Below, in pieces: positions 5,283 to 29,196 of a stretch of DNA of 64,000 nucleotides. The position numbers and the translations under genes are program-made. This DNA comes from Candidatus Methanomethylicia archaeon. GTDB taxonomy: Archaea; Thermoproteota; Methanomethylicia; Nezhaarchaeales; B40-G2. Below the pieces are notes generated by a model that was not told the DNA's origin, ran no database searches, and saw only the letters and a list, made by a program, of their open reading frames with translations. Every line of letters starts with the position of its first letter. Positions within the stretch are counted from its first letter, which is position 1. The DNA is taken from contig JAPDJI010000006.1 of assembly GCA_029259155.1 (NCBI GenBank), positions 24,470-88,469 on the forward strand, read 5' to 3'.

Positions 5283-5330
5283 AGTTGGCTTAATAAACCA
5301 CCACGTAACTCTATCCCTGGGTCGACCTAT

Positions 5331-6794: not shown

Positions 6795-6826
6795 AGTTTT
6801 ACCACGAAGCACTCAGTAAGGATTGG

Positions 6827-7381: not shown

Positions 7382-7418
7382 AACAAGTCCTCCACTAGTC
7401 TCTCTGGAGACAGGAGGC

Positions 7419-8069: not shown

Positions 8070-8105
8070 TATATTAGAGTGCCACTTAGCTTTACCGGTT
8101 AACAG

Positions 8106-8627: not shown

Positions 8628-8635
8628 TTAAATAT

Positions 8636-9292: not shown

Positions 9293-9367
9293 GTCTTTTC
9301 ACCTCTCCTCTTTTTAATGAATAGGGGGATAAGGCTTTTAAGGTTGATAGTGATGCTGCTGCTGGCT

Positions 9368-12788: not shown

Positions 12789-13571
12789 TTGTTAAAGGCC
12801 CTACTCAAACTACTACGGATTTACCCACTGTATGAGAAGTGGCTATGGCATCAGGTTAAAGGTAAACCTATACCTCAACACATAGGAGTTATCCTGGATG
12901 GCAACCGTAGGTGGGCTCAGAACAGGCTATACAAGCCGTGGCTAGGCCACTTTTACGGTGCCGATAAGGCAGAGGAGCTCTTAGACTGGTGTTTGAAGCT
13001 GGGTGTGAAGACATTAACGCTCTACGCTTTTTCAACCGAGAACTTCGAGAGGCCTCCTAATGAGGTGGAGGCTATCTTCAAGGTGATAGAGGAGAAGCTG
13101 CTTAAACTGACGGATGATCCTAGGATCTATAGACATAAAGTAAAGGTTAAACTGCTTGGGAGGCGCGACCTCCTACCACCTAACCTTAGGAGGCTTTTCG
13201 AGGAAGTTGAACGTAAAACCGAAAACTTTGACCAACACTTCCTCAACATAGCTGTAGCCTATGGAGGGAGAGCTGAGATAGCTGACGCTGTCAAACGTAT
13301 AGCTGAGGCAGTGGCGCGAGGAGAGATTGCGCCTGAGGAGGTGGACGAGGAGCTCATAGAACGCCACCTATACACGGCACATCTGCCCAACCCACACCCA
13401 GACCTTATCATAAGGACATCGGGTGAGGAGCGGCTTAGCGGCTTTCTCCTATGGCAGTCAGCGTACAGTGAACTATGTTTTCTCGATGTCTACTGGCCGG
13501 AGTTTAGGAAGATAGACCTCCTTAGAGCAATAAGGGTATATCAGTCTAGGCAACGGAGATTTGGACGCTGA
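12789..13571 (+). CDS. uppS: cis-prenyltransferase (polyprenyl diphosphate synthase)
   Basis: HIGVILDGNRRWA, YAFSTENF, YGGRAEI, PDLIIRTSGEERLSGFLLWQ. Confidence 0.96.
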   Translation: MLKALLKLLRIYPLYEKWLWHQVKGKPIPQHIGVILDGNRRWAQNRLYKPWLGHFYGADKAEELLDWCLKLGVKTLTLYAFSTENFERPPNEVEAIFKVIEEKLLKLTDDPRIYRHKVKVKLLGRRDLLPPNLRRLFEEVERKTENFDQHFLNIAVAYGGRAEIADAVKRIAEAVARGEIAPEEVDEELIERHLYTAHLPNPHPDLIIRTSGEERLSGFLLWQSAYSELCFLDVYWPEFRKIDLLRAIRVYQSRQRRFGR

Positions 13572-13600
13572 GAAAGCCTCAGATTCGGCCCTGACCATAC

Positions 13601-14029
13601 CTACCTTAAAATGTGCGCCACTTCAACTCCAAGCTTCTGAAGATACCTCGCTATGAAGCGTCTATGACAACCTCTAGGGTTCTCCTCCAGACAGAGGAGA
13701 CAGGTACGTTTTTGGCTCGCTAACTTTAACAGCTCTTTTATTCCGTCCTTAAAGCTCTTCGTATCCATGTAGCGTTCAAAGCCTCCGCGACGGTAGCCTC
13801 CAAGCCTATCTCCCATCCATACATAGCTTATCCCAGCTTCCTTAAGCCACCGCTCCATGTTCTCTCGCGCGAAGTCACCCTGCTTGGACTTGGGCCACCT
13901 CCTGATGTCTACGACTAGCTCTATTCCACTGGCTTTCAACATGCTTAAGACTCGCTCGCGGCTACGTGAGCCATAGCCTATGGTCCAAATTTTCAAAGCT
14001 CTCTCCGTCAATGTCCTGCTCAAATACAT
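13601..14029 (-). CDS. DUF488-family protein
   Basis: WTIGY, VDIRRWP.S, LGGYR, LLCLE..P..CHR. Confidence 0.88.
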   Translation of the reverse strand: MYLSRTLTERALKIWTIGYGSRSRERVLSMLKASGIELVVDIRRWPKSKQGDFARENMERWLKEAGISYVWMGDRLGGYRRGGFERYMDTKSFKDGIKELLKLASQKRTCLLCLEENPRGCHRRFIARYLQKLGVEVAHILR

Positions 14030-14117
14030 AATATATGGGCTTCACTAATCCTTTTCCTCTGCGTAGCCCTTAAACATGAGCTGTCTTTTACTATGAGCGA
14101 GATACTGGTGGTTTATC

Positions 14118-14732
14118 TTGGACCTCTGGGAGGCTATAAAAACGAGGAGGAGTATCCGTAAGCTTACAGGGGAGTTAAGCTTCAGCAGCCTCCTTAAACC
14201 TTTGGAAGCGGCTAGATGGGCTCCTAGCGCTCATAATGCTCAGCCATGGAGGTTTCTTCTAATTTTAGATCCTCAAGTTAAAAGAAGCTTGGCTGAAGCT
14301 ATGGCTGAAGCTTGGGTCAAGGACCTCATAGCCGACGGCGTAGAGAAAGAAGCCGCTGAGAAGGCAGCTTATAGGTCGGTGATGATGATTGTCAGTAGCC
14401 CAGTTGCTATAGTTGTCTGTTTAACCATGGAAGATATGCAGAAATATCCTGATGAGCGTAGGAGGAGGGCTGAATATTTAATGGCGGTTCAAAGCGTTGC
14501 GGCAGCCGCGCAGAACCTGCTTTTAGCGCTACATGCTGAAGGTCTGGGTGCATGCTGGCTTTGTGCCCCGCTATTTTGCCAGGAAGCTGTTAGAGGGGCT
14601 CTCGGGATCCCAAGCGACGTAGAGCCGCAGGCCTTGGTAATTGTAGGGCGTCCAGCCGAATCCCCCCTCCCCCCGCCTAGGAGGCAGTTAAATGAGGTGT
14701 TGTTCATCAATAGGTGGGGTGTTAAGCCTTGA
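14118..14732 (+). CDS. Nitroreductase, FbiB C-terminal-domain-like (F420 biosynthesis associated)
   Basis: RRSIR, APSAHNAQPWRF, W..DL..DG, YPDERR..AE..MA.QS, GLGACW.CAPLFC; overlaps cofD. Confidence 0.85.
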   Translation: MDLWEAIKTRRSIRKLTGELSFSSLLKPLEAARWAPSAHNAQPWRFLLILDPQVKRSLAEAMAEAWVKDLIADGVEKEAAEKAAYRSVMMIVSSPVAIVVCLTMEDMQKYPDERRRRAEYLMAVQSVAAAAQNLLLALHAEGLGACWLCAPLFCQEAVRGALGIPSDVEPQALVIVGRPAESPLPPPRRQLNEVLFINRWGVKP

Positions 14733-15658
14733 TAACGGCGTTGGCAGGTGGTGTAGGAGCCTCAAAGCTCCTTAGAGGCTTGGTGGAGGTGGTGGATCCC
14801 AGAGAGCTCACGGTGATAGTGAATACCGGGGATGATATAGATCTCTTCGGCCTCTATATCTCACCTGACGTGGATATAGTCACATACACCTTAGCCGGCT
14901 TGGTGGATGAGGAGAAGGGTTGGGGTTTCAAGGATGATACCTTCCACTGTCTTGAAACGCTGAAGCTTTATGGTTACGATACGTGGTTTAAGCTTGGCGA
15001 CCGCGACTTAGCCACCCACATCCATAGGACCTTGTTGATGAAGGCTGGTTTAACGCTGTCTCAAGCCACTGCTATGATCTCTAAAGCGTTAGGAGTGCGC
15101 TCTAAGATACTGCCGATGAGTAACGATAGGGTCACCTCTATGGTCAAGACGGACCGTGGCGTGATGACTTTTGAGGAGTACTTGGTCAAGCATAGCATGG
15201 TCCCTGAAGTACGAGATGTGTTCTACGCAGGGGTCGAGGATGCTAAACCTGCTCCAGGAGTGGTTGAAGCGTTGGAGGAGGCTAAGGTTATCGTGATATG
15301 TCCAAGCAACCCTGTGGTCAGCATAGGTCCTATACTATCTATCCGAGGTGTACGTGATGCTCTGCGACGTGCTCAGGCTAGGATAGTGGCGGTATCTCCA
15401 ATTATAGGCGGCAGGCCTGTAAAGGGGCCAGCTGACAAATTGATGAGAGCATTAGGAGTAGAGGTATCAGCTTACGGAGTGGCTGAAATGTACAGGGATT
15501 TTCTGGATATCATGTTAATAGACGAGGCGGACGTTAAGCTTAGACCGAGGATAGAGACGCTGGGCATTAAGGTTGCGGCCACCTCGACCTTAATGAAGAG
15601 CCTCGAAGATAAAATTAGGCTAGCCAGGTTAGTCCTTAAGGAAGGGCTTAAGCATTAA
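14729..15658 (+). CDS. cofD: 2-phospho-L-lactate transferase
   Basis: LAGGVGASK, VNTGDD, ISPDVD, LGDRDLATH, PSNPVVSIGPIL, KGPA. Confidence 0.96.
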   Translation: MITALAGGVGASKLLRGLVEVVDPRELTVIVNTGDDIDLFGLYISPDVDIVTYTLAGLVDEEKGWGFKDDTFHCLETLKLYGYDTWFKLGDRDLATHIHRTLLMKAGLTLSQATAMISKALGVRSKILPMSNDRVTSMVKTDRGVMTFEEYLVKHSMVPEVRDVFYAGVEDAKPAPGVVEALEEAKVIVICPSNPVVSIGPILSIRGVRDALRRAQARIVAVSPIIGGRPVKGPADKLMRALGVEVSAYGVAEMYRDFLDIMLIDEADVKLRPRIETLGIKVAATSTLMKSLEDKIRLARLVLKEGLKH

Positions 15659-15790
15659 CGTGAAAGCCCCTCCAGAATGGAAACTAGGTACTCCTTAAAC
15701 TTCTTGAATAATGCTCTTCCAGCCTTGGTTGGGTAGCACCTCTAACCGTTATGTTCTATGAAGGGCATGTCCAGTATTGATGCTCTCTTT
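15656..15790 (-). pseudogene. Possible remnant of a winged-helix regulator C-terminus
   Basis: ILDMPFIEHNG*RCYPTKAGRALFKKFKEYL resembles the Y..T.KG..L wing/helix; internal stop. Confidence 0.3.
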
Positions 15791-15865
15791 ACTTGGAAAT
15801 CCGCCTTGCTTGAAGCATGAGTAAAAGAATAAAGTTAAAAGTAGCCTACCTGTTAGCTGGGCTCC

Positions 15866-16510
15866 ATGTTGAAGGTTTTTGCTGCTGTCCCGGTTAAGGA
15901 GCTATCTTCAGCCAAGACTAGGCTATCTAAGTTACTATCCCCCGACTTCAAGGAGGTCTTTGTCTTAGCTATGTTGAGAGACGTATTGGATGCTTTAATG
16001 TCATCGAGCTCCCTGAGTGAAGTGATGGTGATTTCCTCAGACCCTGAAATATTAGAGGAGGCTTCAAGGCGAGGAGCCGTAGGGATCGATGAAGGGGAGC
16101 CTAGAGGGATCAATGAGGCTTTAAGGTTGGCGGTCGATGAGGCCTTAAGACGGGGCGCTGAGGCATTGCTTATCGTGCCGTGCGATGTCCCTCTCATTAA
16201 GGCCTCAGACATAGAAAAGTTGATGAGCTTCTTGGAGCCCCCTCCTTCCATGGTTATTTCCCCCTCAAAAAATAGGGAAGGTACCAATGCTTTGCTCCTG
16301 GCTCCCCCGAACGTCATAGCTCTTCGTTTTGGCCCTCAAAGTTTCCAGAACCATTTAGAGGAGGCGTCTTTAAGAGGGGTCAACGTAAAGATCTACGAGT
16401 CTTCAAGCCTGGCGCTGGATATAGATGAGGAGGAAGACCTTCAGATCCTAAAGCGGATGAAGGGAGAGGGACGTGTCATAGCTCTCCTAGAGTCTTTTGG
16501 TTTTCGATAA
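15866..16510 (+). CDS. cofC: 2-phospho-L-lactate/PEP guanylyltransferase
   Basis: VPVK...AKTRLS, AMLRDVL, PCDVP, GTNAL, FG..SF..H, DIDEEEDL. Confidence 0.95.
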   Translation: MLKVFAAVPVKELSSAKTRLSKLLSPDFKEVFVLAMLRDVLDALMSSSSLSEVMVISSDPEILEEASRRGAVGIDEGEPRGINEALRLAVDEALRRGAEALLIVPCDVPLIKASDIEKLMSFLEPPPSMVISPSKNREGTNALLLAPPNVIALRFGPQSFQNHLEEASLRGVNVKIYESSSLALDIDEEEDLQILKRMKGEGRVIALLESFGFR

Positions 16511-16603
16511 CTCTTTGATGTAACCAGCAGGGCGTTTTGGTCCCGGGACACTTTTTAAAGAGCCTTCTACGTAACAAGTTTTGACGGTTGGAGGCGCGGT
16601 GTT

Positions 16604-17059
16604 TTGGAGAAGCGGATGAGTTGGGACGAGTACTTTATGGAGATGGCCAAGCTGGTCAGTAAGCGTAGTACCTGTTTAAGGAGGCATACGGGCGCTGTGC
16701 TCGTGAAGGATAACCGTATAATTGCTACTGGCTATAATGGAGCCCCTAAAGGGTTACCCCACTGCGCGGAGGTTGGCTGTATGAGGGAGGCTTTAAAGGT
16801 GCCTTCAGGTCAGCGACATGAGCTCTGTAGAGGGCTACATGCGGAGCAGAACGCCATTATTCAGGCAGCGGTGTTCGGCGTAAGCACTAGGGGCGCTACG
16901 CTGTACACTACGACCTATCCCTGCGTGATATGCGCCAAGATGATTATTAATGCCGAGATCGGGGAGGTAGTGTACGATGACGACTACGAGGACGACTTAG
17001 CCAAGCGAATGCTCAGCGAGGCGAGGATTAAGGTTAGGAGGTTTAAGACACGACGCTAG
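16604..17059 (+). CDS. dCMP deaminase (ComEB-like)
   Basis: SWDEYFM, RSTC, TGYNG, HAEQNA, PCVIC. Confidence 0.93.
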
Positions 17060-18473
17060 CAGCCCGCTCCGCTGCCTCGATCAACGGGTCTGGATGTAGG
17101 CCTAGGGCGAGGCAGATCAAGGCCAGGGCGAACATGGGTATTAGCATGGCGAACGATACTCTAACCCTCCCCAGCCTCCTGCGGGTCAACATGACTCGGT
17201 TGATAAAGCGGAGCCAAGCAGCTGAGAACACCGCCATCATCACCGCTGCGGCCACGGTGGGCGCCAGTAGCCCCACGTCGACCCCGGCCATGTAAATGAG
17301 GAGCTCGCTCACGAATATGTTCAGGCCAGGGATGCCGATGATGGATAAGGAACCTATAAGTCCCGCTGCGCTAGCCTCAGGCATGAACCATAGCATGTCG
17401 CCCAGCGTCCTAATGTTCCTGACCTTCACCTCATGGACTATGCAACCAGCGTAGAGGAAGAGGAGGCTCTTCACTATCTCATGGTTCAAGGTGTGAGCCA
17501 CTGCTGCTACAGCCGCTCCGTGAGCGAAGAGGCCTAGGGCGAAGACCACTAAGCCCATCTCGTTGATGCTTGAGTAAGCCATGAAGCGCTTGATGTCAAG
17601 CTGAGAGAAGGATAGAATGGCTGTGTAGCTAAGCATCGCAAGCCCACATCCCCACACTAGCCAGCTAACTGACCTCAATGACTCTAGGCTCCAGCAGCCA
17701 TACAATATCCTTAGGAAGCCGTAGGCCGCGACCTCTATCATCAACCCTGATAGCATGGCGCTGACGGGTGCGGGTGCTTCTGAGTGAGCATCAGGGAGCC
17801 ATACGTGAAGCAGGGGGATCACGCCCATCTTAATCAGTAAGCCTATGGACACGGAGGCCGCTGCGAAGACTTCAAGGGGGCTGTCTAGGCCAAGTTCCTT
17901 CACGGCCAGGAGGTTAAAGGTCCCCTTTAAGGCGTAGAGCGATAGCAGGCCGAAGAGGAGGGTTGTTGAGGCCACGTGGGAGATGAGTAAGTATAGCATC
18001 GCTGCCCTAGGTGCCTCAGCGCCCTCCCCGTAAAGGTGAATGAGGGCGTAAGAAGACCAGACCATGAGCTCCCAGAAGAGGTAGAAGGCTATCATGTCCA
18101 CTGACATCAAGCATCCAATCATGCCTGAGGTGAAGAGCAGGAGGAGGCCGCTGTAGAGCTGAGAGCCGTGCTCCACATACTTAGTGCTGTAGGTTAGGCA
18201 GGCGTGGCTGATGAAGGAGGCTAGTACCACGAAGGCCGCATTAAGCTCGTCGAAGCACAGCAGCCAGCTAAAGGCCAGCGAGCCTCCGTGGCCCCAGGAA
18301 GCCTCGAAGCACGCTCCCCCTTGGAGGTAGAGCTTGGTCGATAAGGTAAGCGCGGCAATCAACGCGGTGAGCGCAGCGGCCCAGGCCGCTGTTGGTGGAA
18401 GCTTACGCGAGCAGAGCGTATTGAAGCAGCCCACGGCAAGGGGGATTAATAGAATTAAGGCAGCCTCAAACAT
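17043..18473 (-). CDS. Proton-conducting antiporter-like subunit, NuoM/MrpD-type
   Basis: [32 protein letters not shown] (TM12 Glu). Confidence 0.9.
17746..17810. repeat. 65-bp exact direct repeat, copy 1 (copy 2 at 19682-19746)
   Basis: CCTGATAGCATGGCG...GCCATACGTGAAG identical in both antiporter genes. Confidence 0.9.
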
Positions 18474-20364
18474 GTTTAACCAGCCTCCAAGCTAGTGTTG
18501 CGAGCAGCGAGGCGGTGAAGGCGAGGAGCCAGGCTTGATTAAGCGATGCAGCAAGGAGAGCGGTGAGGAGGGCTGAGAGGGCTAGGCTTACATCGACCAT
18601 CCTCCTCAATAGCTCTGCGGGGTGTCTCCTTCTAAGCGCTTGGCCTAGTGGGAGGCTGGAGGCCTTAGAGAAGAAGGCTGACTCGTGGGTCCTGGCTACC
18701 TCCTTGGCGGTCAGCATGGCCGCGTCGGGCAAATCATCTAAGAAGCCAGCTCTAAGCTTAGCTTCGGAGCCTTGGCTTAGGAGCCTCGACATCCTTAGAA
18801 ACGACGAGGCCAGCCAGGAATACGCGTAGTCCACGCCGAGCCCAGAGGTCAGCAACGATGTGAGCCTCCTCGGGGCCGTGCAGTTGCCTATTTGATAATA
18901 GGCCCACCATAGGGCCAGGCCGGCCAGTGCGCATAGTAGGGTAGAGGCCATCAGGAAGAGGCTGAGCCTTACTTCGAGGGATTCCACGATTCCGAGCGTG
19001 ACCATCCACCTAGCAGGGGTAATGAGCAGCACGCCTAGAGGAAGGCCTAGGAGGCAAGCTGAGGCAAGCGCTAGCATGGGAGGCAGGGTGGTGGACGGCG
19101 GCGAGGCCTCGACGAGCCTGTAGGAGGAGCCGTAGATGAAGCCGAGTAGCCTAGCCACGTAGGCCACGGTGAGGGCAGAGCCCAGCATCATTAACCCAGC
19201 CACCCAGAGCCTCCCCTCCTCGAGGGCTGTGTCTATTATCAGGTCCTTGGTGAAGAAGGCGTTGAGAGGAGGGATGGCTGCGAGGGCTAGGGCACCTATA
19301 GCGAAGGCAGCTCCATGAAGCCTTAGGTCGGTCCCCACCCCCCTAAGCACCCTTAAGTCCCTAGACCCAGCAGCGTGGCTTAACACGCCGGCGGCTAGGA
19401 AGAGGAGGGACTTGAAGAGGGCATGGCTGAAGGCGTGTAGGCCTGCTGCCACTAAGCCCAGCGTGGAAGCTAGGCCGAGGGAGGCCACCATGTACCCTAG
19501 CTGGCTTATGGAAGAGAAGGCCAACACCCTCTTCACGTCAAGCTCGACTAGGGCTGCTGCCCCTCCATAAAGCAGGGTTACTACCCCCCCGAGGAGTAGT
19601 AGGGGGGCCAGCCCCTCAGCTATTTCCACGCTTAAGTCCATGGTCCTAATCAGCATGTAGACCCCGACGTGTACCATCAATCCTGATAGCATGGCGCTGA
19701 CGGGTGCGGGTGCTTCTGAGTGAGCATCAGGGAGCCATACGTGAAGTGGGTAGATGGCCACCTTGAAGGCTAGCCCAGCGACCATTAAGGCGCAGGCCAG
19801 CTTCAAGCCCCACGTAGCCTCGTGGGCTGCTAAGAAGCGTAGCTGAGCGAGGTCGAAGGTATGGGTGGTCATGTAGAAGGTGACTATGGACACTACCATC
19901 AACGCGCCGCCTAGGTGAGTGAAAATGAAGTACTTAGTAGCTATCGACAGCGCTTTCTCCTTGGGACACTCAGCCCAGTGGGCTATAAGGAGGTAGGAAG
20001 GTATCAACATGAACTCCCAGAACACGTAGAAGAGCACGAAGTTTCTTGAGGTCACTGAGCCAGCCATGCCGAGGGCGAAGAGGCATAGCAGGCCGAAGAA
20101 CCTGGACCTATCAGTCTCCACGTAGCTGTGAGAGTAGACGCTGGCGAGGAGCGATATGGTGAGCACGAGGACTATGAAAGCCTGGGAGAGTAGGTCGTTG
20201 AAGAAGGGTAGGTCAATGGGGTCGGGGATGAAGAGGAAGGCGAGAGACATAGCCAAACCAAGTGAAGCTGCGAGACCTGCGTGTTCCTCAAGCCTATCGC
20301 TCACCGCTATGGTTAGAAGCACACCAGTGGCGGAGAGAACCATGAGAGAGTAGAGGGTACCCAT
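18466..20364 (-). CDS. Proton-conducting antiporter-like subunit, NuoL/MrpA-type
   Basis: [49 protein letters not shown]-terminal extension with VDYAY. Confidence 0.9.
   Translation of the reverse strand: MGTLYSLMVLSATGVLLTIAVSDRLEEHAGLAASLGLAMSLAFLFIPDPIDLPFFNDLLSQAFIVLVLTISLLASVYSHSYVETDRSRFFGLLCLFALGMAGSVTSRNFVLFYVFWEFMLIPSYLLIAHWAECPKEKALSIATKYFIFTHLGGALMVVSIVTFYMTTHTFDLAQLRFLAAHEATWGLKLACALMVAGLAFKVAIYPLHVWLPDAHSEAPAPVSAMLSGLMVHVGVYMLIRTMDLSVEIAEGLAPLLLLGGVVTLLYGGAAALVELDVKRVLAFSSISQLGYMVASLGLASTLGLVAAGLHAFSHALFKSLLFLAAGVLSHAAGSRDLRVLRGVGTDLRLHGAAFAIGALALAAIPPLNAFFTKDLIIDTALEEGRLWVAGLMMLGSALTVAYVARLLGFIYGSSYRLVEASPPSTTLPPMLALASACLLGLPLGVLLITPARWMVTLGIVESLEVRLSLFLMASTLLCALAGLALWWAYYQIGNCTAPRRLTSLLTSGLGVDYAYSWLASSFLRMSRLLSQGSEAKLRAGFLDDLPDAAMLTAKEVARTHESAFFSKASSLPLGQALRRRHPAELLRRMVDVSLALSALLTALLAASLNQAWLLAFTASLLATLAWRLVKHV
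19682..19746. repeat. 65-bp exact direct repeat, copy 2
   Basis: Identical to 17746-17810. Confidence 0.9.
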
Positions 20365-20368
20365 CGAC

Positions 20369-21820
20369 CTAGACCTCCATCATCCAACTCTCCTCCAAGC
20401 AGGCTACGGCCGCCTTGTGAGCTGACTCAAGGAACGGTGAAGGAGCGAGGCCTATGAGGAAGCAACTTATGATCAGCGAGATTATTAGGGCTCGGAGGCC
20501 CCAGCTAGCTCCACGCTGCGTGGATGGCCCCTCCCCGGCCCTGCTGTACATGGAGTAGAGAGCCCTCATGAAAGATGCCAGCATAACTAGGTCGAGCACG
20601 ATGAAGGCCGCCGCTACCCATAGGAGACCCTCCTCAACCATCGATAGGAACACTAAGAACTTGCTGTGGAAGCCGTTGAGTGGGGGCACAGCGCAGCTAC
20701 TGAGCGAGGCTATAAGGAAGCCAGTGGTGCCTAGTAGCACGTGTTTATAGGCACCCTTTAAGGCATAGATTCTCCTTCCCTGAGAGGACTGTATGAAGAG
20801 CGCTATGCTGGCGAAGAAGAGGTTCTTAATTAACACGAGGTTGAGCACGTGGAAGAAGACTCCTTGAAGGGCCGTATGGTTAGCTATGCCCCAAGCCATC
20901 ATCAACACACCCCCCTCCCCCACTGAGGTACAGGTTACGAGGCGCTTAAGGTCGTCCTGGCCGAGCGCAAGTAGGTAGCCAGCAGCCATGTTTACAACAG
21001 CGGCCGCGAGGAAGAAGTCCTTCAAGGCTGGTAAGAGGGGACGGTACACGGTGAATAACATGCGGGTCGCTCCATAGAAGCCGACGACTCTCACCGCAGC
21101 AGCCATGAACGCGCTCGAGGGGCTTGGAGCCCATGGGTTAACCCCCGGGAACCATATATGGGCTGGGAACACCGCTAACTTCACCCAAAAACCTCCCAGC
21201 ACGAGGGGTAGGGTCAGCCATAGAGCCTGAGGCGGAATAGTGGAAGCCACCTCAGGTATCATGGTCGACCCTGCCTGAAGAGCTAGTACCGCGAAGCCGA
21301 GCACGAGGAGGATGGTGGAGGCCGCGTCGAAGGCTAAGTAGAGCGCTAAGCTCTCCCTAGGCCCTGTATCTATGCCGACCTCGTCAGGTAGGCGGGGGGC
21401 CATGAAGTAGTAGGAGGCCAAGTTCATCAATAGGTAGAAGAGGAGAAAGCTAAGGAGGTCGCCACAGTAAATAAGGCTCACGATCCCCAGCAGGGATAAG
21501 GTGAGGGAAGCATAGTAAGCAGGATCGTTTAGCTTCTTTAAGTAAGTAGCTGCTAAGAGCATGGCGGCAGCTCCAGCCATGGTGAACTTCTCGAGGAGCA
21601 GTGCTCCATAGGCGTCCAGGAAGAGAAGGCTTGGAGACCTAGAGAGCACGGCTGGGGTATCCTCGACAAGGGGGGCTGCTAAAAACGAAGCTGCTAGGCA
21701 GGCTAGGGAGCCTACTACAGCTACGTAGCTAGTAAGCTTAGCTCCACGCTTCACTACCGCTGAGGCTGAGGTGGCTACAGCTGTAACAATAGCCGCCTGT
21801 AGAGGCAGTGAGGCTAGCAA
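20369..21820 (-). CDS. Divergent antiporter-like subunit, NuoN/MrpD-type
   Basis: KLAVFPAHIWFP, DLKRL, PPLNGFHSKF; TM5 Glu apparently replaced (FYLLMN). Confidence 0.85.
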   Translation of the reverse strand: MLASLPLQAAIVTAVATSASAVVKRGAKLTSYVAVVGSLACLAASFLAAPLVEDTPAVLSRSPSLLFLDAYGALLLEKFTMAGAAAMLLAATYLKKLNDPAYYASLTLSLLGIVSLIYCGDLLSFLLFYLLMNLASYYFMAPRLPDEVGIDTGPRESLALYLAFDAASTILLVLGFAVLALQAGSTMIPEVASTIPPQALWLTLPLVLGGFWVKLAVFPAHIWFPGVNPWAPSPSSAFMAAAVRVVGFYGATRMLFTVYRPLLPALKDFFLAAAVVNMAAGYLLALGQDDLKRLVTCTSVGEGGVLMMAWGIANHTALQGVFFHVLNLVLIKNLFFASIALFIQSSQGRRIYALKGAYKHVLLGTTGFLIASLSSCAVPPLNGFHSKFLVFLSMVEEGLLWVAAAFIVLDLVMLASFMRALYSMYSRAGEGPSTQRGASWGLRALIISLIISCFLIGLAPSPFLESAHKAAVACLEESWMMEV

Positions 21821-21836
21821 TTCACAAGGCCTCCAA

Positions 21837-22487
21837 TCAGAGGCCGAGGAAGTGTAGCCTATGCCTTCTCCTTAATAGGATGACTGCGTCTCCCTGCTCC
21901 AGCTGAGGTACTTCGTTAGGTAGTAAGGCGGCCCCCCCTCTGAGTATGAGGAGGGGGTAGGTGTCTTTGAGCTTCCTGCGTATGTCCAGCGGCCTAAGCC
22001 CCTTTAGCCTAGAGCCTTCGTCCACGGACACCTCCTCGACCTCTATGTCCTTGCGCACCATCTCAAGTAGCTCGAAGAGGCTTATTCTCCTAATCTTAGC
22101 GTAGATCCTTAACACCGAGGAATCTACGTGGTTGACCAGCTCGTGAAAGCCCAGCGACCTACAGACCTCAGCGTAGGAGGCGTGCTTTATTCGAACAAGC
22201 ACCCTTCTAGCTCCTAGGTTCTTGGCTAGGAGGGAAGCAATGAGGTTCACTGGGTCGCTCCCTGTCAGGGCGGCGAAGACGTCAGCCCTCCCCACGCCCG
22301 CCTCGATTAACACGCGTGGGTCAGTGGCACTTCCGGTGAAGACGTTAACCTCAGCCTCGAGAGACTTGGCTAGCCTCTCGGTGACCTCTGGGCTAGTGTC
22401 GATGGCCGCTACTTTGTAGCCGTGGAGCACCATCCTCCTCACCGTGGCCTCTCCAACGTCGCCTAAGCCGGCCACTATGATAAACAA
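21837..22487 (-). CDS. TrkA/KtrA-family RCK regulatory protein
   Basis: AGLGDVG Rossmann motif, GSATDP, ALTGSD..N, C-terminal RCK_C. Confidence 0.88.
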   Translation of the reverse strand: MFIIVAGLGDVGEATVRRMVLHGYKVAAIDTSPEVTERLAKSLEAEVNVFTGSATDPRVLIEAGVGRADVFAALTGSDPVNLIASLLAKNLGARRVLVRIKHASYAEVCRSLGFHELVNHVDSSVLRIYAKIRRISLFELLEMVRKDIEVEEVSVDEGSRLKGLRPLDIRRKLKDTYPLLILRGGAALLPNEVPQLEQGDAVILLRRRHRLHFLGL

Positions 22488-23119
22488 CCACTAGCCCCCT
22501 CCTTGTGTCTGATTAACACGAGGACATCGCCCGGCTCCAGCGTCAAGTCGGGGTCGGGGAACTTCACCTCCCCCTCTGACAACACGAAGGCTGGGTAGGA
22601 GTTCTTCAGAACCTCCTCACCGAGCTCCTTGATCTTCCTCCACGCTAGCTCCGAGCCCTCCCCTATCTCGACGTGCTCGACGTCGACGAAGTGCTCACCT
22701 ATAGAGACTACGTCGGCCAGCTTAAAGCCATGGACAGATGCATCGATCCTAAACGCTGTGGCCTCGGCTGGGCTACAGATCTCGGTGAGGCCGACCATCC
22801 TACAGGCCTCCACGTACACCGGGTTCTCGACCCTCACCAACACCCTCCTAGCTCCCTGATGCTTAGCCAGTAGAGCTGAGACTAAGTTTACATCGTCGCT
22901 CCCCGTCAACGCTAAGAAGGTGTCAGCTTCCTCAACCCTCACCTGTTCCATGACGTGGGGGTCTGTTACGTCACCCTTCACCACCTCAACCCCCCTTGCC
23001 TCAAGCTCCCTGCAAGCAGCCTCATCGCGCTCGATCACCACGACGTGATAGCCAAGCCCCTTCAAGTAGGTCGCCAGCGCCCTCCCGATGTCGCCTCCTC
23101 CGGCTATCACTACCTTCAC
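22475..23119 (-). CDS. TrkA/KtrA-family RCK regulatory protein
   Basis: AGGGDIG, IERD, GDVTDP, ALTGSDDVN, PDPDLTLEPGD. Confidence 0.9.
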   Translation of the reverse strand: MKVVIAGGGDIGRALATYLKGLGYHVVVIERDEAACRELEARGVEVVKGDVTDPHVMEQVRVEEADTFLALTGSDDVNLVSALLAKHQGARRVLVRVENPVYVEACRMVGLTEICSPAEATAFRIDASVHGFKLADVVSIGEHFVDVEHVEIGEGSELAWRKIKELGEEVLKNSYPAFVLSEGEVKFPDPDLTLEPGDVLVLIRHKEGASGCLS

Positions 23120-23214
23120 TCCCTACCTCACCGCCGACCTTAAACTCTTAGATACGTAAAAGGGTATCGCCGTAAAGGAAATAGGTCGGCTAGTAAAAGA
23201 AACTATAGATAGGC

Positions 23215-23862
23215 TTGTTCGTGGTCATAGCTGGCGGCGGTGGTGTTGGTAAAGCTCTGGCTAAGAGGCTTATTGAGAGAGGGGAGAGGGTCGTCGTAGT
23301 GGACAAGGACCCCTCGACGTGCTCTATGCTTCGAGAGGAGCTGGGCGTCGAGGTGGTAGAGGGCGATGCTACCAACATGAACGTCCTCCAGCGCGCTGGC
23401 GTCGAACACTGTGACGCCCTCTTCGCCCTAGTTGGCCAGGGCAACATCAACGTCATGATAGCGTTGGCTGCCACTGTCTGTGGCTGTAAGGCTGGGAGGG
23501 TTGTAGTGAGGGTGGACAACGACCGCTACCTTGAAGTGTGTAGCATGCTCGGCTTGAAGGAGGTCGTGAACCCAGCTAAATCGGTGGCCGTAGTGGTGTC
23601 CGAGATGGTTAGAGGTGTCAAGCTAACCACGTTGGCGGAGATGTACTACAAGGGTTACATCGACGTAGAGAGCGTAAAGGCAGAGGATGAACAGTATCTA
23701 CAGGCCCTCGTAACTAAGATTGCCCATATGGTAGGTCAAGAATGCCACCCTATCCTCGTGATAAGGAACAGTAAGATCATGCTTCCTGAGCCTAACCTCA
23801 AGCTCAAGGCAGGGGATGAGGTAGTTCTCATAAAGCGGAGGAGTTTGATGTGCGCGTCGTGA
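23215..23862 (+). CDS. TrkA/KtrA-family RCK regulatory protein
   Basis: AGGGGVG, VDKD, GDAT, VVNPA, LKAGD. Confidence 0.88.
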   Translation: MFVVIAGGGGVGKALAKRLIERGERVVVVDKDPSTCSMLREELGVEVVEGDATNMNVLQRAGVEHCDALFALVGQGNINVMIALAATVCGCKAGRVVVRVDNDRYLEVCSMLGLKEVVNPAKSVAVVVSEMVRGVKLTTLAEMYYKGYIDVESVKAEDEQYLQALVTKIAHMVGQECHPILVIRNSKIMLPEPNLKLKAGDEVVLIKRRSLMCAS

Positions 23863-24476
23863 TAGCTGGAGGAGGAGATCTCGGGGAGTCGGTCGCCAGG
23901 ATCTTAAAAATTCAAGGCGTACACGTCACCATAGTAGATCGAAGTAGGAAAACTTGTGAGAAGCTTGCTAAAAGGCTAGATGTGGACTTTGTTGAAGGAG
24001 ATGTCAGTGACCCATTAACGCTGGAAGAGGCGAGAATTGAGGAGGCTTCGGCTTTCCTAGCTTTAACGGGCGATGACTCCATTAACACTATCTCCTCGCT
24101 CATAGCTAAGCGATACGGAGTTCCAAGAATAATAGCTAGAATAGAAGACTCGAGCTATGCTCGCGTATGTGAGGCTAATGGGGTGGAGGTCGTCAGCTTC
24201 GTTGAATCAGCCTCTATGATGTTGGAGGCCATATTGTATCACAATAAGCTGATCGAACTAACCTCATTAATAGAGGAGGAGGGGTTGGACATAGAGCGCA
24301 TAGATTACCACGGTAAAACAGGGGAGTTAAAAATTAAGCATAATGACGCCTACCCAATTATGGTGGTGAGGGGCGGCGAAGTCTTCCTGCCCAATCCAGG
24401 GCTTAAGCTTAAAGATGGTGACAGAATATTCATCATAAAAAGGCGTAAGAAGCTCTTCTACATACCTGAGCTTTAA
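23850..24476 (+). CDS. TrkA/KtrA-family RCK regulatory protein
   Basis: AGGGDLG, GDVSDP, ALTGDDSIN, LKDGD. Confidence 0.9.
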   Translation: MRVVIAGGGDLGESVARILKIQGVHVTIVDRSRKTCEKLAKRLDVDFVEGDVSDPLTLEEARIEEASAFLALTGDDSINTISSLIAKRYGVPRIIARIEDSSYARVCEANGVEVVSFVESASMMLEAILYHNKLIELTSLIEEEGLDIERIDYHGKTGELKIKHNDAYPIMVVRGGEVFLPNPGLKLKDGDRIFIIKRRKKLFYIPEL

Positions 24477-25918
24477 AGCACTATACCTGTCGAGAAGTAA
24501 AGAGCTGTGCCTATGAGGATGACGATGAACCATAGGAGAAGATCTAAGAACCTTTTACGCCTCGTTAACCCAGGCCTTCTGGTCAGCTGTGACGGATAAA
24601 TAGTTATGTTTAGCCTCTTGGCCACTAAGAAGGAGATCATGGATGCTATCAGCATAGGTGCGAATAAGCTGAAGTTACTGCATGTTTCACATAGGAGTAG
24701 GATAGTAGACATGGGTACTCTACCGGCAGCGGCGTAGAGCGCAGCCATCCCAGCGACTATGTAGGCAACATGCGCCCCTGACCTAACTATGAATTCAGGA
24801 AATAGCGCATCGAGAGCTAATGCGTAAGCTCCACCTATCATCGCTCCGCAGAAAAGCGAAGGTACTATTACACCTCCAGCTCCAGCGCTAGCTATGGAAA
24901 AAGTGCTAGCCAAGATTTTTCCGAAGTATAAAAGGAGGAAAACCCATATCAGAAGGTGGCCAAAGCTATTAAAGAGCTCCGTGAAATCTATGGTTTCCTG
25001 TATTACCCAGTAGCCCATTCCCCATAAATAGAGCTCCCCTAGCATTAAAAGCCCTAACAACACGACGAGGCCGTCGAGCAGTCCTCCAATAGCTGGCCTT
25101 AAAGGTCTAGGTATTTTAGAGTCTCTAATCGGGTAATGGAAGGCATAGAATATTTTAGTCCATAGAGCAGCTGCAATAACCGATACAAGCCCCAGCAACG
25201 CCATGCCTGCGACGTGAAATAAGCTGTAAGCTACGTTGGGGTTCAGTATTAACATGTCATGGAACTTTGGAAAAGTTACGAGAGGCTCTGAGCCTAAAAG
25301 GGAGTTGAACAGCAGAAAACCTACTACCGAAGATATCAGGGCTGACGGTAAAGCTTCCACCTCGACGTCTTCAGAGTATAGGACCTCGCTAGCAAAGATC
25401 CCCCCACCGAGGGGGGCACTGAAGATTCCTCCTAAAGCCCCTGCAGCTCCACAGATAGCCACTATCTTAGCGTCTCTACGCGTAAACTTCATGAACCTCC
25501 CAAGCCATGTTTTCTTAAAGAAGAGGTTGATGGCTGCGGCGACGGCGCTGCCTGAATATGCCATAGGACATTCTCTGCCAGCGCTGCCACCTGTACCTAT
25601 GGTTAGGGAGGCGGTCAAGATTTTCAATACCCCTTTGCCCGGGTTTGTATACCCATGATGTAGGTGGACGAGCTCTATCATGCCATCGGTGGAGCATGGA
25701 ATGTAGAATGCATCTTTGTCTAGAAGGTAATTAAGTAAGCCTACGGCTAAACCGCCTGCAAAAGGTATGAGGGCTACCATAAACAATAAGCCTTGACTAC
25801 GAGCTTGATTGACGAGATCTAAGAAGAACTCTATGGAGAACTTCAAGGAAACAGTAAAGGCTATGCCTGCGATTCCACCGAGAAGTCCTGAAAGGAGGCC
25901 AAAGATCACCCATTTCAT
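24473..25918 (-). CDS. CLC-family chloride channel/transporter without CBS domains
   Basis: TIGTGGSAGRECP, F.APLGG..FASE, GGVIVPSL, TIY. Confidence 0.9.
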   Translation of the reverse strand: MKWVIFGLLSGLLGGIAGIAFTVSLKFSIEFFLDLVNQARSQGLLFMVALIPFAGGLAVGLLNYLLDKDAFYIPCSTDGMIELVHLHHGYTNPGKGVLKILTASLTIGTGGSAGRECPMAYSGSAVAAAINLFFKKTWLGRFMKFTRRDAKIVAICGAAGALGGIFSAPLGGGIFASEVLYSEDVEVEALPSALISSVVGFLLFNSLLGSEPLVTFPKFHDMLILNPNVAYSLFHVAGMALLGLVSVIAAALWTKIFYAFHYPIRDSKIPRPLRPAIGGLLDGLVVLLGLLMLGELYLWGMGYWVIQETIDFTELFNSFGHLLIWVFLLLYFGKILASTFSIASAGAGGVIVPSLFCGAMIGGAYALALDALFPEFIVRSGAHVAYIVAGMAALYAAAGRVPMSTILLLCETCSNFSLFAPMLIASMISFLVAKRLNITIYPSQLTRRPGLTRRKRFLDLLLWFIVILIGTALYFSTGIVL

Positions 25919-26180
25919 AATTCTATTACTTAATATTTCATGTACATTTAGGATCGTTGAGAGGCCACCCCGGAACTCTCATTTCCCTATAGTTAGGACT
26001 ATCTCCCCCCTGTGATGGCAACTTATGAATAAACTTTTTGCTGTTTTTTCAAGGTAGCGTAGGGCGAGTGAAAACTACGACGACTTAAGTACTATTGCTG
26101 TTGAGAAATGTAGCGCTGTGTCTATTATGGTGACAGCGAACAACATAAGATGGTCGTCCTGAAACTTTGGGGAGATGTGG

Positions 26181-27317
26181 CTAAGACCCGCCGCTTAACT
26201 TGAAGAAGTTTAAAATGGTCTTTGCAGCTATTCTTGCACCGTTCAAGACGTCTGCGACTTTAACGTACTCGTCTTTAACGTGCGCCTGCCCCCTGGTCAT
26301 GGTACCTATAGACACTATAGGCACATTGAACAGCCTGTGAAGTTGAGCTGCATCTATCCAACCTTTAGCCACGGTTGGCCAAGCCTTAAAGCCTTCGTCT
26401 TTAGCTGCTTCCAAGGCAGCCTTCGCTATGGGGCTTGACGGCTCAATCACGTAGCCTTTCAGCCCGCCCTTTAGCCTGACCTTAAAACCATGTTTAAGTG
26501 CTCTATTTGCCACCTCTAGCACGCGCCTTACGGCATCTTTAGGGCTTAAGGTAGGTAGGAGCCTAAAGTTCACGTTCATGTAACATGAGTCAGGTACCAT
26601 GGTGGGCCACTCACCTCCCTTAATGACTGTGACGGTAACGTTCTCGACGACCGGTAGAGGTCTTTCCATCCGCTGTAAAATTCTTGGGGATCGTAGCTCG
26701 CTGATAAGGTCGTAGGCCCTATAGATGGCGTTGACTCCAAGCTCAGGCTCTGAGGAATGATAAGCCTTACCTTCCACTATCACCTCCACGTTAGCTATAC
26801 CTCTACATCCTATCACTACTTCACATTGTCTGTCTTCAGCATCTATATAATGGTCTAGGCATATGCCAGCGTCGACGTCCACCTTGTCCTTCAACCCTCT
26901 CCTCGCCCTCACCTTACCTCCTCCCTCTTCCCTCGATGTGAAGAGAAGCACAAGCCTCCCGGGGAGGTGCTGAGTAACGAGCGCCTTGGCTATGGTCAAC
27001 ATCGCCGCCACTCCTGCCTTATTGTCTGAGGCCCCTCTACCGTACACCTTACCTTCTCTAAGCATACCTGAGTAGGGATCTATGGTCCATCCGTTTCCCG
27101 GCGGGACCGTGTCAAGGTGAGCGTTTAGTAAGACCCTGCGTTTTCCGCTACCTAGCTCGGCTATGACGTTGAAGTAGCCATCTACCTCGGCTCTCAGCCC
27201 CATCTCCTGTAGCTTAGAAACTACTAGCTTCGCAACTTTTTCTTCTCCTCTAGGAGGGCTTGGAATCTTAACTAGTTCCTGAAGGGTTTTAACCAAGTAA
27301 TCTGAGTCCAGCTCCAT
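26181..27317 (-). CDS. M20-family metallopeptidase (ArgE/DapE-like)
   Basis: NAHLDTV, YGRGASDNK, REE, GKAYHSS.PE.GVNA, AH..DE. Confidence 0.92.
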   Translation of the reverse strand: MELDSDYLVKTLQELVKIPSPPRGEEKVAKLVVSKLQEMGLRAEVDGYFNVIAELGSGKRRVLLNAHLDTVPPGNGWTIDPYSGMLREGKVYGRGASDNKAGVAAMLTIAKALVTQHLPGRLVLLFTSREEGGGKVRARRGLKDKVDVDAGICLDHYIDAEDRQCEVVIGCRGIANVEVIVEGKAYHSSEPELGVNAIYRAYDLISELRSPRILQRMERPLPVVENVTVTVIKGGEWPTMVPDSCYMNVNFRLLPTLSPKDAVRRVLEVANRALKHGFKVRLKGGLKGYVIEPSSPIAKAALEAAKDEGFKAWPTVAKGWIDAAQLHRLFNVPIVSIGTMTRGQAHVKDEYVKVADVLNGARIAAKTILNFFKLSGGS

Positions 27318-27768: not shown

Positions 27769-29196
27769 TCATAGCCTTTCCCAAAGCTCCGAGGTGAATA
27801 GAGCTAGGATAGGTAGCAGTTCTAAGCGTCCAACCCACATACACCAGACCAAGGCCAGCTTCGAAGTAGCGTTAAGGCTGAAAAGATCCAAGTACGCTGG
27901 TCCGACACCGCCCTCCGCTGATAAAGTGGCTGATAGAGCTGATGTGAAGGGTATGCCTTGGGCTGTTATGATAAGTGTAGAGACAAAAGCTACGGCCAAG
28001 TAGATGAAGAAGAAGCTAGCTACTCTTAACGCGTCTTCAACGTTCATGATCCTTCCTCCGACTTTGAGAGGTTTAATGGACTTTGGAGGAAGCATGGTTT
28101 TATGTACTTCATGTGACGCTAGCTTGAAGAGCACTATCATCCTCGCCACCTTGATAGCTCCAGCGGTGGAGCATAGCGATCCACCTACGACCATCAATAT
28201 CATCAATATCCACTTAGACGCCTCGGGAAGAGAATTAACATCCATGCTGGTGAAACCGGTTGTCGTAGCTATGGAAACTGTCTGAAATACACCTAGCCTA
28301 AATGCATGTAGTGTACTAACGTTTAGATGAAGAACTATATCGAGGGAGACTATGATCGAAGCTACGGCTATAATCATTAACATTACCTTAAGCTCCAGGT
28401 TCCTCCAAACCTCATCGTTCCTCCCTTTAAGTAGATAGAGGTGGACGTGGAAGTTGGTGGCCCCTATAATCATGAACACCACTAGTACGCTCTCTACCCA
28501 GGGGTTATGAAACCCCTCTATATTAAGTGTCTTTGTTGAAAATCCTCCAGTGGCCAACGTGGTAAAGGAGTGGCATAGAGCGTCGAAGCCCGAGAGGCCT
28601 AGGTAAGTCAGCAAAATAGCGCACAGGAAGGTGTAAAGCGTGTATATTAGCCAAAGATCCTTAACCGTGTCCCATGCCCTAATCGTAAGTTTCTCCTCTC
28701 TAGCTTCAGCTACGTAAAGCCTCCAAACTCCAATTCCACGTGGAGTCATAAAGAGGATGAAGAACAATACGATTCCAAGCCCTCCAAGCCATTGAGTTAA
28801 GGCCCTCCAGAAGAGTAAGCTATGAGGGACATCTTCAAGATTGCTCAGTAAGGTCATGCCAGTAGCCGTAAACCCAGACATGGCTTCAAAGAAAGCGTCC
28901 AGGGGTGCCATGTCATGTAGGTATGGAAGAGAGCCAATACCTGTTATCAGGAGCCAACCCATTGCTGAGAAGAACAAGGCCTGAGCTGGATTGATCTCGT
29001 CAGGGATGGGTAGCTTCGCGCTAAAGAAACCGCCTACAATCATGAGGGGGAGAGCTACTGAAAGCAGCTCTTCAAGAACCATCCACTCCTCATAGATTAC
29101 AGCTACAAGACTAGGGGCTAAGAGCACGAGCCCAAGCAACAATGTGAGCCTCGCGAAGAGAGCAGGTAGTGCCAGTTTCTTCAATCCTGACACCAA
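27769..29196 (-). CDS. trkH: Trk-type K+ uptake membrane subunit
   Basis: FEAMSGFTATG, WRALTQWLGGLG, ATGGFS, TTTGF, STAGAIKVAR, GRLE. Confidence 0.95.
   Translation of the reverse strand: MVSGLKKLALPALFARLTLLLGLVLLAPSLVAVIYEEWMVLEELLSVALPLMIVGGFFSAKLPIPDEINPAQALFFSAMGWLLITGIGSLPYLHDMAPLDAFFEAMSGFTATGMTLLSNLEDVPHSLLFWRALTQWLGGLGIVLFFILFMTPRGIGVWRLYVAEAREEKLTIRAWDTVKDLWLIYTLYTFLCAILLTYLGLSGFDALCHSFTTLATGGFSTKTLNIEGFHNPWVESVLVVFMIIGATNFHVHLYLLKGRNDEVWRNLELKVMLMIIAVASIIVSLDIVLHLNVSTLHAFRLGVFQTVSIATTTGFTSMDVNSLPEASKWILMILMVVGGSLCSTAGAIKVARMIVLFKLASHEVHKTMLPPKSIKPLKVGGRIMNVEDALRVASFFFIYLAVAFVSTLIITAQGIPFTSALSATLSAEGGVGPAYLDLFSLNATSKLALVWCMWVGRLELLPILALFTSELWERL

Follow-up and report, generated by a model that had tools for sequence, protein, structure and literature searches.

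An RCK-linked trio of complex-I/Mrp antiporter-like subunits in an archaeal operon: a candidate regulated ion transporter

In the 64,000-nt stretch of DNA from a Candidatus Methanomethylicia archaeon analysed here (contig JAPDJI010000006.1 of assembly GCA_029259155.1, positions 24,470 to 88,469; hereafter the window), an operon on the minus strand, at 17043-23119, carries in this order the genes for two RCK proteins, RCK_A and RCK_B, and for three antiporter-type subunits of the complex I/Mrp kind, which we call N-like, L-like and M-like after NuoN, NuoL and NuoM. The five-gene operon is tightly coupled, conserved and under purifying selection, and includes neither a small Mrp/Nuo subunit nor a redox module. 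Gene order and sequence make the RCK-linked trio look like a regulated ion transporter of a new kind, though it is not yet a demonstrated new system. We hypothesize, with slightly less than even confidence, that RCK_A and RCK_B gate a cation/proton transporter composed of N-like, M-like and L-like. A little more tentatively still, this may be the first transporter made of complex-I/Mrp antiporter-like subunits only, devoid of NuoK, NuoJ, NuoA, NuoH, the small Mrp subunits and redox partners, and gated by a two-gene, nucleotide-sensing RCK assembly.

In the mechanism that we propose, N-like, M-like and L-like would assemble into a membrane arm of their own, held together by the lateral helix of L-like, and this arm would couple proton movement to that of a monovalent cation (K+ or Na+), either as an exchanger or as a co-transporter. 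On its cytoplasmic face, a hetero-oligomer of RCK_A and RCK_B would switch the arm by sensing ATP/ADP or NAD(H). L-like would provide a conventional proton path, and the acidic axis of M-like, formed by E247 and E390, is a candidate cation site; isolated NuoL reportedly conducts Na+ and K+. The N-M-L order of assembly, the docking of the RCK proteins on the arm, the ion species and the ligand are elements that we infer.

Composition of the operon

An earlier note on this DNA, made from the sequence alone, had described a tight minus-strand run of two RCK genes and three antiporter genes, and the coordinates of the open reading frames (ORFs) agree with it, the successive junctions of RCK_A, RCK_B, N-like, L-like and M-like being -13, +16, +4 and -8 bp, too tight for extra genes (Table 1). 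All three large proteins score above the Pfam cut-off of PF00361 (21.5 bits), and both RCK proteins above that of PF02254 (23.8 bits). The GGAGG that precedes the TTG start of the N-like gene reads as a Shine-Dalgarno-like motif. A scan with bacterial promoter and terminator models and a scan with Rfam gave nothing above chance in the region, where sigma-70 promoter scores were at or below shuffle level, this being a bacterial model not applicable to an archaeon. The same note had seen no small Mrp, NuoA/H/J/K, hydrogenase or FeS gene next to the operon, and none of the MrpB, C, E, F and G, NuoA, H, J and K, hydrogenase or FeS families was detected in a Pfam scan of 17 ORFs at 12789-27317.

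The nucleotide loops of both RCK proteins read as intact. In RCK_A a GGGDIG loop is accompanied by an acidic residue that ends beta2 (IERD), and in RCK_B a GLGDVG loop by an acidic residue after beta2 (AAID motif; AIDT). RCK_A also scores 27.4 bits with PF02080 (TrkA_C; cut-off 27); this model does not match RCK_B, which nonetheless aligns over its full length with paralogues that it does match. The nearest solved relatives of RCK_A are the TrkA chains 4g65 and 4j9u (E 1e-28). No diadenylate cyclase (PF02457) was found in the host assembly, which is 94% complete, so ATP/ADP or NAD(H) are likelier ligands of the RCK proteins; cyclic di-AMP was considered as the ligand and, for the same reason, judged unlikely.

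In order to assign the large proteins to subunit types, residues were read from an alignment of the trio with that of a related genome (G001, described below) and with the host's own subunits, and from pairwise HMMER alignments to the solved MbhH (6cfw_H). The motifs of transmembrane helix (TM) 12 are those read in the earlier note, FHSKF in N-like, FTKD in L-like and FVSE in M-like. Accordingly labelled models are the top NCBIfam matches (NuoN, NuoL and NuoM, respectively), all of them under the curated cut-offs: N-like reaches 143 bits with TIGR01770 (NDH_I_N; cut-off 333), M-like 234 bits with TIGR01972 (NDH_I_M; cut-off 264), and L-like 260 bits with the NuoL models NF005141 and TIGR01974 (cut-offs 556 and 407), with which it aligns through residue 563-573. 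The lysines of TM7, TM11 and TM12 are kept in N-like and L-like, being invariant across five aligned N-like sequences, and M-like retains K215 and K335 and has a Glu at TM12. The residue set of the NuoN type is incomplete in N-like, in which K214 and K387 are present and the TM5 Glu and TM8 Lys are gone; that of the NuoM type is likewise incomplete in M-like, with E135, K215 and E390 present and E247 at TM8. The TM8 position had been read as R, H or E, and R244, H232 and E247 are indeed found there, the last in place of the Lys of MbhH in the pairwise alignment. Less weight is given to this column, which holds K in 133 of 238 aligned homologues (the returns of two word-based protein searches), because it is imprecisely aligned.

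The residue that bears most directly on the proposed arm is the TM5 Glu, which the earlier note had reported missing from N-like, where L130 takes its place. This Glu is kept in 232 of the 238 homologues, the exceptions being the three N-like orthologues (Ala), one Gln and two gaps. In complex-I structures, the TM5 Glu of NuoN faces the glutamates of NuoK, and that of NuoM and NuoL faces a TM12 residue of the preceding antiporter-like subunit. What N-like has lost is thus the very TM5 Glu that would be turned towards NuoK, a subunit absent from this system, and its loss in N-like alone would be expected of an N-M-L array with nothing upstream.

L-like carries the marks of the NuoL/MrpA type, namely the Lys-Asp of TM12 and a C-terminal extension with TM15, lateral helix and TM16. 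In this extension TM15 is followed by an amphipathic helical stretch of about 100 aa and then by the last TM helix or helices. Its AlphaFold2 model, built on a 15-row alignment (mean predicted local distance difference test, pLDDT, 71; predicted template-modelling score, pTM, 0.75), is of low confidence in the C-terminal part but helical there, at 499-579 and, in the form of two hydrophobic helices, at 582-631. When the model was compared to the PDB with Foldseek, the top 38 matches were all NuoL/ND5/NdhF/MrpA chains (TM-score about 0.7; some 600-725 columns aligned). The C-terminal extension claimed for this subunit is therefore borne out by the alignment to the NuoL models, the predicted helices and the fold matches. 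Its identity as a NuoL is only partly so: TM12 motif, extension and fold agree with it, but the scores lie below the cut-offs and, in a 41-row maximum-likelihood tree (quick search; support from the Shimodaira-Hasegawa-like approximate likelihood ratio test, SH-aLRT, only), the L-like pair falls outside the NuoL/MrpA/HyfB clade (support 99), at an unresolved place near the NuoM clade. NuoM sequences are the neighbours of the M-like pair in this tree, and the N-like pair groups with a NuoN clade (SH-aLRT 96), its stem measuring 2.2 substitutions per site; the stems of all three members range from 1.2 to 2.2.

A repeat search revealed a 99-nt tract common to the L-like and M-like genes, 90% identical, with a long exact core and the same 24 residues encoded. 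The variant found in this TM7-TM8 stretch is APV in both genes here, TPI in both genes of G001 and SPV in the L-like gene of a third, metagenomic lineage (L046). Such lineage-specific shared variants point to concerted evolution by gene conversion between L-like and M-like, which accounts in part for the placement of L-like off the NuoL clade.

The host assembly (G000; 1.55 Mb in 47 contigs) has PF00361 matches at four places, the trio and contigs C7, C4 and C19. C7 carries a nuo operon with NuoA, B, C, D, I, H and K together with N (521 aa), L (704 aa) and M (509 aa) subunits, in the order K-N-L-M; C4 a group-4-hydrogenase-like operon with its own 704-aa PF00361 subunit; and C19 an Mbh/Mrp-like cluster with MrpF, MrpG, MbhD, MnhB, MrpC, MrpE, one 541-aa PF00361 subunit and an MbhM-type subunit, close to which a NuoD-like gene lies on the opposite strand. 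The three NuoD-like genes of the genome are those of C7, C4 and C19, each beside its own membrane subunits, and its two PF00420 (NuoK/MrpC) genes are at C7 and C19 only. Since all NuoD-like and PF00420 genes belong to complete clusters with their own antiporter-like subunit, there is no orphan complex missing L, M and N, a finding that the earlier note had named as grounds for refutation. Together with the loss of the TM5 Glu from N-like, the completeness of these three systems favours the minimal, redox-free L/M/N arm that the note had proposed. The 94%-complete assembly gave no match to DabA (PF10070).

The resident systems have features of their own. In the nuo operon of C7 (9891-15113 of the examined stretch), the N-type subunit has Thr at the TM7 Lys position and the M-type Gly at that of the TM8 Lys, which makes the resident complex I atypical. 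In the C4 operon (1700-10357 of the examined stretch), a CCG-domain (HdrB-like) protein is encoded between the NuoC-like and NuoD-like genes, and one PF00361 match lies in an open frame of 852 aa with one in-frame TGA, which ORF calling divides into genes of 704 and 142 aa. Elsewhere in the phylum, the canonical nuo locus of G052 (C22, 184000-202000) has five PF00361 genes, of 692, 474, 522, 487 and 540 aa.

Conservation and distribution

Within a set of 41 related genomes, in which the host and G001 are included, the identical layout M-L-N-B-A / C-D / CLC / peptidase is found in G001, which belongs to another genus of the same family; there the gap between RCK_B and N-like is 0 nt and the overlap of RCK_A and RCK_B 25 nt. 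Identity between the two genomes is 66-73% for the proteins of the locus (69% for RCK_A and 73% for RCK_B) and 48-84% for those of the flanking genes. In the third lineage, L046, where N-like is 79% identical, the sequence comprises only the end of RCK_B, a 16-nt gap, N-like and the start of L-like. A metagenomic strain (L045) is 99% identical, with too few differences to judge selection, and a further metagenome contig has gene sizes that match the G001 locus. The reading frames are intact in three lineages. Conserved synteny, on which the earlier note had made its reading depend, is thus observed as the same tight order in G001 and in part in L046, in close kin only. DNA of the locus is present in hydrothermal-vent and sediment metagenomes, and named homologues come from metagenome-assembled genomes of a 'Thermoprotei archaeon' and of 'Candidatus Geothermarchaeota'.

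Beyond these lineages the family is very narrow. Among the 41 relatives, orthologues of N-like, those of the RCK_B type (E ≤ 1e-20) and the RCK_C/RCK_D pair that neighbours the operon are found only in G000 and G001, and of 401 genomes sampled from the phylum only the same two have an L-like orthologue. A scan with the N-like alignment over 185,579 species, each represented by a single genome and the host's excluded, returned the G001 contig only. In a word-based search of 5.8 billion proteins, N-like gave four clusters at 69-100% identity and then nothing above 29%, and L-like three clusters followed by proteins of about 40% identity. Likewise, in a HMMER pass over 1.84 billion representatives at 50% identity, the N-like family consists of one representative (E 2e-284), after which the next single-unit proteins score E 1e-44 or weaker.

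Two groups of candidate relatives were set aside. Proteins of 1166-1328 aa, which had seemed closer, are fused PF00361 units without RCK whose scores are summed over two or three stretches. The loci of two of the nearest non-orthologous relatives of L-like, of about 40% identity, proved to be one canonical nuo and one lone NuoM-like gene, with no RCK in the ORFs scanned (23 of 34 listed). As to architecture, the proteins of 1252-1328 aa that were examined in detail consist of an N-terminal half unit and two full PF00361 units, and a representative of 616 aa has a PDZ domain fused ahead of PF00361.

Between G000 and G001, the ratio of nonsynonymous to synonymous substitution rates (dN/dS) is 0.10-0.23 for the trio, 0.12-0.18 for RCK_A, RCK_B and RCK_C, and 0.17 for the flanking peptidase, values that are rough because dS is near saturation. 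The G+C content at third codon positions (GC3) is 65-73% in the trio, RCK_A, RCK_B and RCK_C, versus about 50-55% in RCK_D, the CLC gene, TrkH-1 and other flanks. The boundary of this island (17043-23862) falls between RCK_C and RCK_D, and the examined genes of the G001 locus have a GC3 of about 70%, a pattern that might reflect the arrival, by replacement, of DNA from a relative with higher GC.

Table 1. Features of the operon and of its surroundings (window coordinates) and key positions of the trio.
Feature	Position	Strand	Description
RCK_A	22475-23119	minus	214 aa; opens the operon; TrkA_N + TrkA_C; PF02254 102 bits
RCK_B	21837-22487	minus	216 aa; 13-nt overlap with RCK_A; PF02254 86.7 bits
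RCK_B-stop/N-like-start gap	21821-21836	minus	16 nt; GGAGG at 21834-21830
N-like (NuoN-like antiporter-type subunit)	20369-21820	minus	483 aa; PF00361 114 bits; TTG start
L-like (NuoL-like subunit)	18466-20364	minus	632 aa; PF00361 215 bits
M-like (NuoM-like subunit)	17043-18473	minus	476 aa; 8-nt overlap with L-like; PF00361 183 bits
Gene-conversion tract	17721-17819 (M-like) and 19657-19755 (L-like)		99-nt repeat, 90% identity, TM7-TM8 stretch
RCK_A/RCK_C divergent intergenic region	23120-23214		95 nt; TATA-like, A/T-rich words some 25 nt before each start, by eye
RCK_C and RCK_D	23215-23862 and 23850-24476	plus	PF02254 95 and 92 bits; divergent from the operon
CLC-type chloride channel/exchanger	24473-25918	minus	481 aa; PF00654 205 bits
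TrkH-1	27769-29196	minus	475 aa; PF02386 181 bits
N-like key positions			TM5 L130 (Ala in orthologues), TM7 K214, TM8 R244, TM11 K332, TM12 K387
L-like key positions			TM5 E117, TM7 K201, TM8 H232, TM11 K318, TM12 K373-D374
M-like key positions			TM5 E135, TM7 K215, TM8 E247 (Lys usual), TM11 K335, TM12 E390

Partners of the RCK proteins and competing explanations

The link between the RCK pair and the trio is favoured by the junctions along A-B-N-L-M, which are overlaps or gaps of 0-16 nt kept in three lineages. It is also favoured by a survey of the 41 relatives of the kind the earlier note had recommended: of 43 PF02254 matches (E ≤ 1e-8; 25 of the 41 genomes), only eight, on contig C5 of G000 and contig C6 of G001, lie within 5 kb of a listed PF00361-like match, and the nearest other pair, in G012, is about 14 kb apart, among the matches listed, which leave nine weak ones outside. 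The adjacency was thus recovered in G000 and G001 and, among those matches, in no other genome within 5 kb. The shared distribution of N-like and RCK_B-type genes, confined to G000 and G001 among these relatives, and the common GC3 island of the trio, RCK_A, RCK_B and RCK_C count in its favour as well. A search with RCK_B for longer fusions returned four proteins of 441-453 aa, each a TrkA type with a double RCK and without PF00361, which is weak evidence.

The surroundings of the operon, which lay outside the earlier note, hold a second RCK pair (RCK_C and RCK_D), which may belong to the same system, and two rival candidates for partner of the RCK proteins, a CLC gene convergent with that pair, and TrkH-1. 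The four RCK paralogues share 33-40% identity with one another and 25-29% with the canonical TrkA of the host, which is encoded divergently beside TrkH-2 on contig C9. The expansion is a feature of these two genomes, with seven PF02254 matches at E ≤ 1e-8 in G000 and five in G001, versus none to two in each of the other 39 relatives; those of G000 include two fusions of a K+ channel with RCK, on C8 and C47. Just downstream of the operon end, cofD and cofC (coenzyme F420 biosynthesis) and a gene of the nitroreductase family occupy 14118-16510 and are syntenic in G001.

The CLC gene overlaps RCK_D by 4 nt. PF00654 is the sole Pfam match of its product, with no CBS domains detected. Of the 40 other relatives, G001 alone has an orthologue (73% identical); other CLC proteins in these genomes are at most 45% identical, and the full-length ones among them have open frames of 582-590 aa. 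We may hypothesize that an RCK pair stands in for the missing cytoplasmic regulatory domain of this CLC. TrkH-1, at 4.6 kb from RCK_A, is 53% identical to TrkH-2, and of 21 genomes searched only G000 and G001 have two TrkH copies. The TrkH-1 gene of G001 is on another contig (C2; 7416-8861 of the examined stretch) than the RCK cluster, with no RCK among the eight neighbouring ORFs scanned. TrkH-2 keeps its divergent TrkA and, in G002, has an MscS neighbour. TrkH-1 has no RCK neighbour of its own in either genome, and at least one RCK pair is probably its partner.

Several points weigh against a gating of the trio by RCK_A and RCK_B. RCK proteins are classically regulators of Trk, Ktr and Kef systems, and all four paralogues match TrkA models best. 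TrkH-1 and the CLC, which abuts RCK_D, are rival partners confined to the same two genomes; in fact, as RCK_C, RCK_D, CLC and TrkH-1 are all restricted to the genomes that hold the trio, the RCK pair has more than one candidate partner. Conserved synteny is weak as independent evidence, because all carriers are close kin of one archaeal family, and the operon order could be conserved through plain inheritance, the flanking genes being syntenic too. As for transport itself, Mrp structures put the Na+ path partly in small subunits that the operon does not have, and N-like may be inert, since it replaces several canonical residues: the TM5 Glu, the TM8 Lys (by Arg), the TM11 His, and LPDAH (by FPGVN). 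Of the link proposed in the earlier note, the operon structure in three lineages and the co-occurrence stand, and the RCK control that it had inferred is putative, TrkH-1 and the CLC being rival partners and all carriers close kin.

The alternative that survives best, which we consider unlikely though worth serious attention, holds that RCK_A and RCK_B, alone or mixed with RCK_C and RCK_D, are split-TrkA-type gating subunits of TrkH-1, the trio being an independent and ungated cation/proton transporter that has only the transcript in common with them and whose link to them would be physiological (K+/H+ balance), not physical. The extra TrkH and the RCK quartet are found in the same genomes, no RCK was seen among the ORFs scanned around TrkH-1 in either of them whereas TrkH-2 has a TrkA of its own, the best matches of all four RCK proteins are to TrkA, and two-gene TrkA rings are known (PMC4380455). 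Nevertheless, TrkH-1 and the RCK cluster of G001 are on separate contigs, the free-standing RCK_C/RCK_D pair could serve TrkH-1 and leave RCK_A and RCK_B to the trio, and the canonical TrkA of C9 could serve both TrkH proteins. Moreover, overlaps or gaps of 0-16 nt at the A-B-N-L-M junctions, as in these three lineages, are typical of the subunits of one complex. The most economical assignment that we infer would give RCK_A and RCK_B to the trio, and RCK_C and RCK_D to TrkH-1 or the CLC.

Much less probable, in our view, is that the trio serves as an alternative or extra distal arm, docking conditionally on the resident Nuo, hydrogenase-like or Mbh/Mrp-like enzyme with the RCK proteins as sensors of the condition. 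Cyanobacterial NDH-1, which swaps NdhD/NdhF paralogues, offers an analogy, and the trio follows the N-L-M order of the host nuo operon (K-N-L-M) with a type-specific TM12 motif kept in each member; extra PF00361 genes are also found beside canonical nuo genes in the phylum, as in the five at the G052 locus. Against such docking, N-like is without the TM5 Glu that couples NuoN to NuoK and that is otherwise nearly universal among the homologues (232 of 238), each resident complex has its own antiporter-like subunit, the stems of the trio (1.2-2.2 substitutions per site) set it apart from canonical subunits, and no nuo or mbh gene is linked to the operon. Least probable of all, and very much so, is that the trio is what remains, decaying or no longer able to transport, of a duplicated nuoNLM block, its adjacency to RCK genes having no functional meaning, since the replaced residues of N-like, the sub-threshold NCBIfam scores of all three proteins and the very narrow distribution are opposed by frames intact in three lineages, dN/dS values like those of the neighbours (0.10-0.23), invariant TM7, TM11 and TM12 lysines in the five N-like sequences and an ongoing gene conversion that keeps the TM7-TM8 core of L-like and M-like identical.

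Relation to known systems and significance

Among characterized systems, Mrp (Mnh/Pha/Sha) resembles the trio in that its PF00361 subunits, MrpA and MrpD, work without a redox module, as a secondary cation/H+ exchanger, and the trio finds some of its best matches, in sequence and in fold, in MrpA, MrpD and MbhH chains. However, Mrp needs MrpB (PF04039), MrpC (PF00420), MrpE (PF01899), MrpF (PF04066) and MrpG (PF03334) as well as the C-terminal domain of MrpA, none of which the operon has; the copies in G000 are only in the C19 cluster (PF00420 also at C7). The trio further differs from Mrp in having three large subunits instead of two, with TM12 signatures of the L, M and N types, and RCK genes ahead of them. 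With the membrane arm of complex I it shares the subunit types, the N-L-M gene order of the host nuo operon, the lateral helix of the L type and the charged residues of TM7, TM11 and TM12; unlike complex I, it is without NuoA/H/J/K and without a Q or N module, N-like has no TM5 Glu, TM8 holds R, H and E, the branches are long and divergent, and the core of L-like lies outside the NuoL clade.

The regulatory half of the operon has its counterparts in the Trk/Ktr systems (TrkH-TrkA, KtrAB, TM1088A/B), in which RCK/KTN regulators of about 215 aa likewise carry a nucleotide loop and may be encoded in two genes; the putative membrane partner in the operon, judged by gene order, is a set of three antiporter-like subunits and not a channel-like protein of the TrkH/KtrB type. 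KefC, KhtTU and AmhMT are CPA2 cation/H+ exchangers switched by a soluble or fused RCK/KTN module, and would be functional analogues of the proposed system, although their membrane fold (PF00999) is unrelated; G000 has two CPA2-type genes, on C6 and C11. Recruitment of PF00361 subunits outside respiration by a non-redox partner is known from DabAB/MpsAB and from cyanobacterial NdhD3/F3-CupA, in which the partner is a carbonic-anhydrase-like protein, unlike the RCK proteins of the operon.

The nearest known redox-free arm is the partial NDH-1 operon of marine actinomycetes (nuoA, H, J, K, L, M and N without the peripheral redox arm), which is discussed in PMC4018334 as an ion-related adaptation to the marine environment. 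This bacterial operon retains NuoA/H/J/K and has no reported RCK partner; NuoL/NuoM/NuoN and TrkA are treated in it as separate marine-adaptation genes (PMC4018334). The two-gene TrkA ring has its example in TM1088A/B (PMC4380455). A full-text literature search (few subscription journals, no supplements) found no paper that joins Proton_antipo_M with TrkA_N, or MrpD with an RCK domain, and none, among the matches listed, that brings antiporter-like subunits together with RCK, KTN, TrkA or KtrA.

How a signal passes along the arm of complex I and Mrp, and which ion is carried by each antiporter-like subunit, are still debated, and to our knowledge all studied systems of this kind contain modules of the NuoH/J/K or MrpB-G type. 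An operon with the three large subunits only, the first of which lacks the residue that normally receives the signal from upstream, would be a stripped-down object for structural and transport work. If the RCK pair does gate the trio, the range of RCK/KTN domains would extend past Trk, Ktr, Kef and channel partners to a third, unrelated membrane architecture. The trio would then offer a minimal example from nature of a long-range charge relay among antiporter-like subunits that is driven by nothing but ion gradients, with ATP/ADP or NAD(H) exerting control. For the organisms themselves, an archaeal family of hydrothermal settings, the four RCK paralogues, the second TrkH, the short CLC and the trio amount to a burst of ion-handling genes specific to this lineage.

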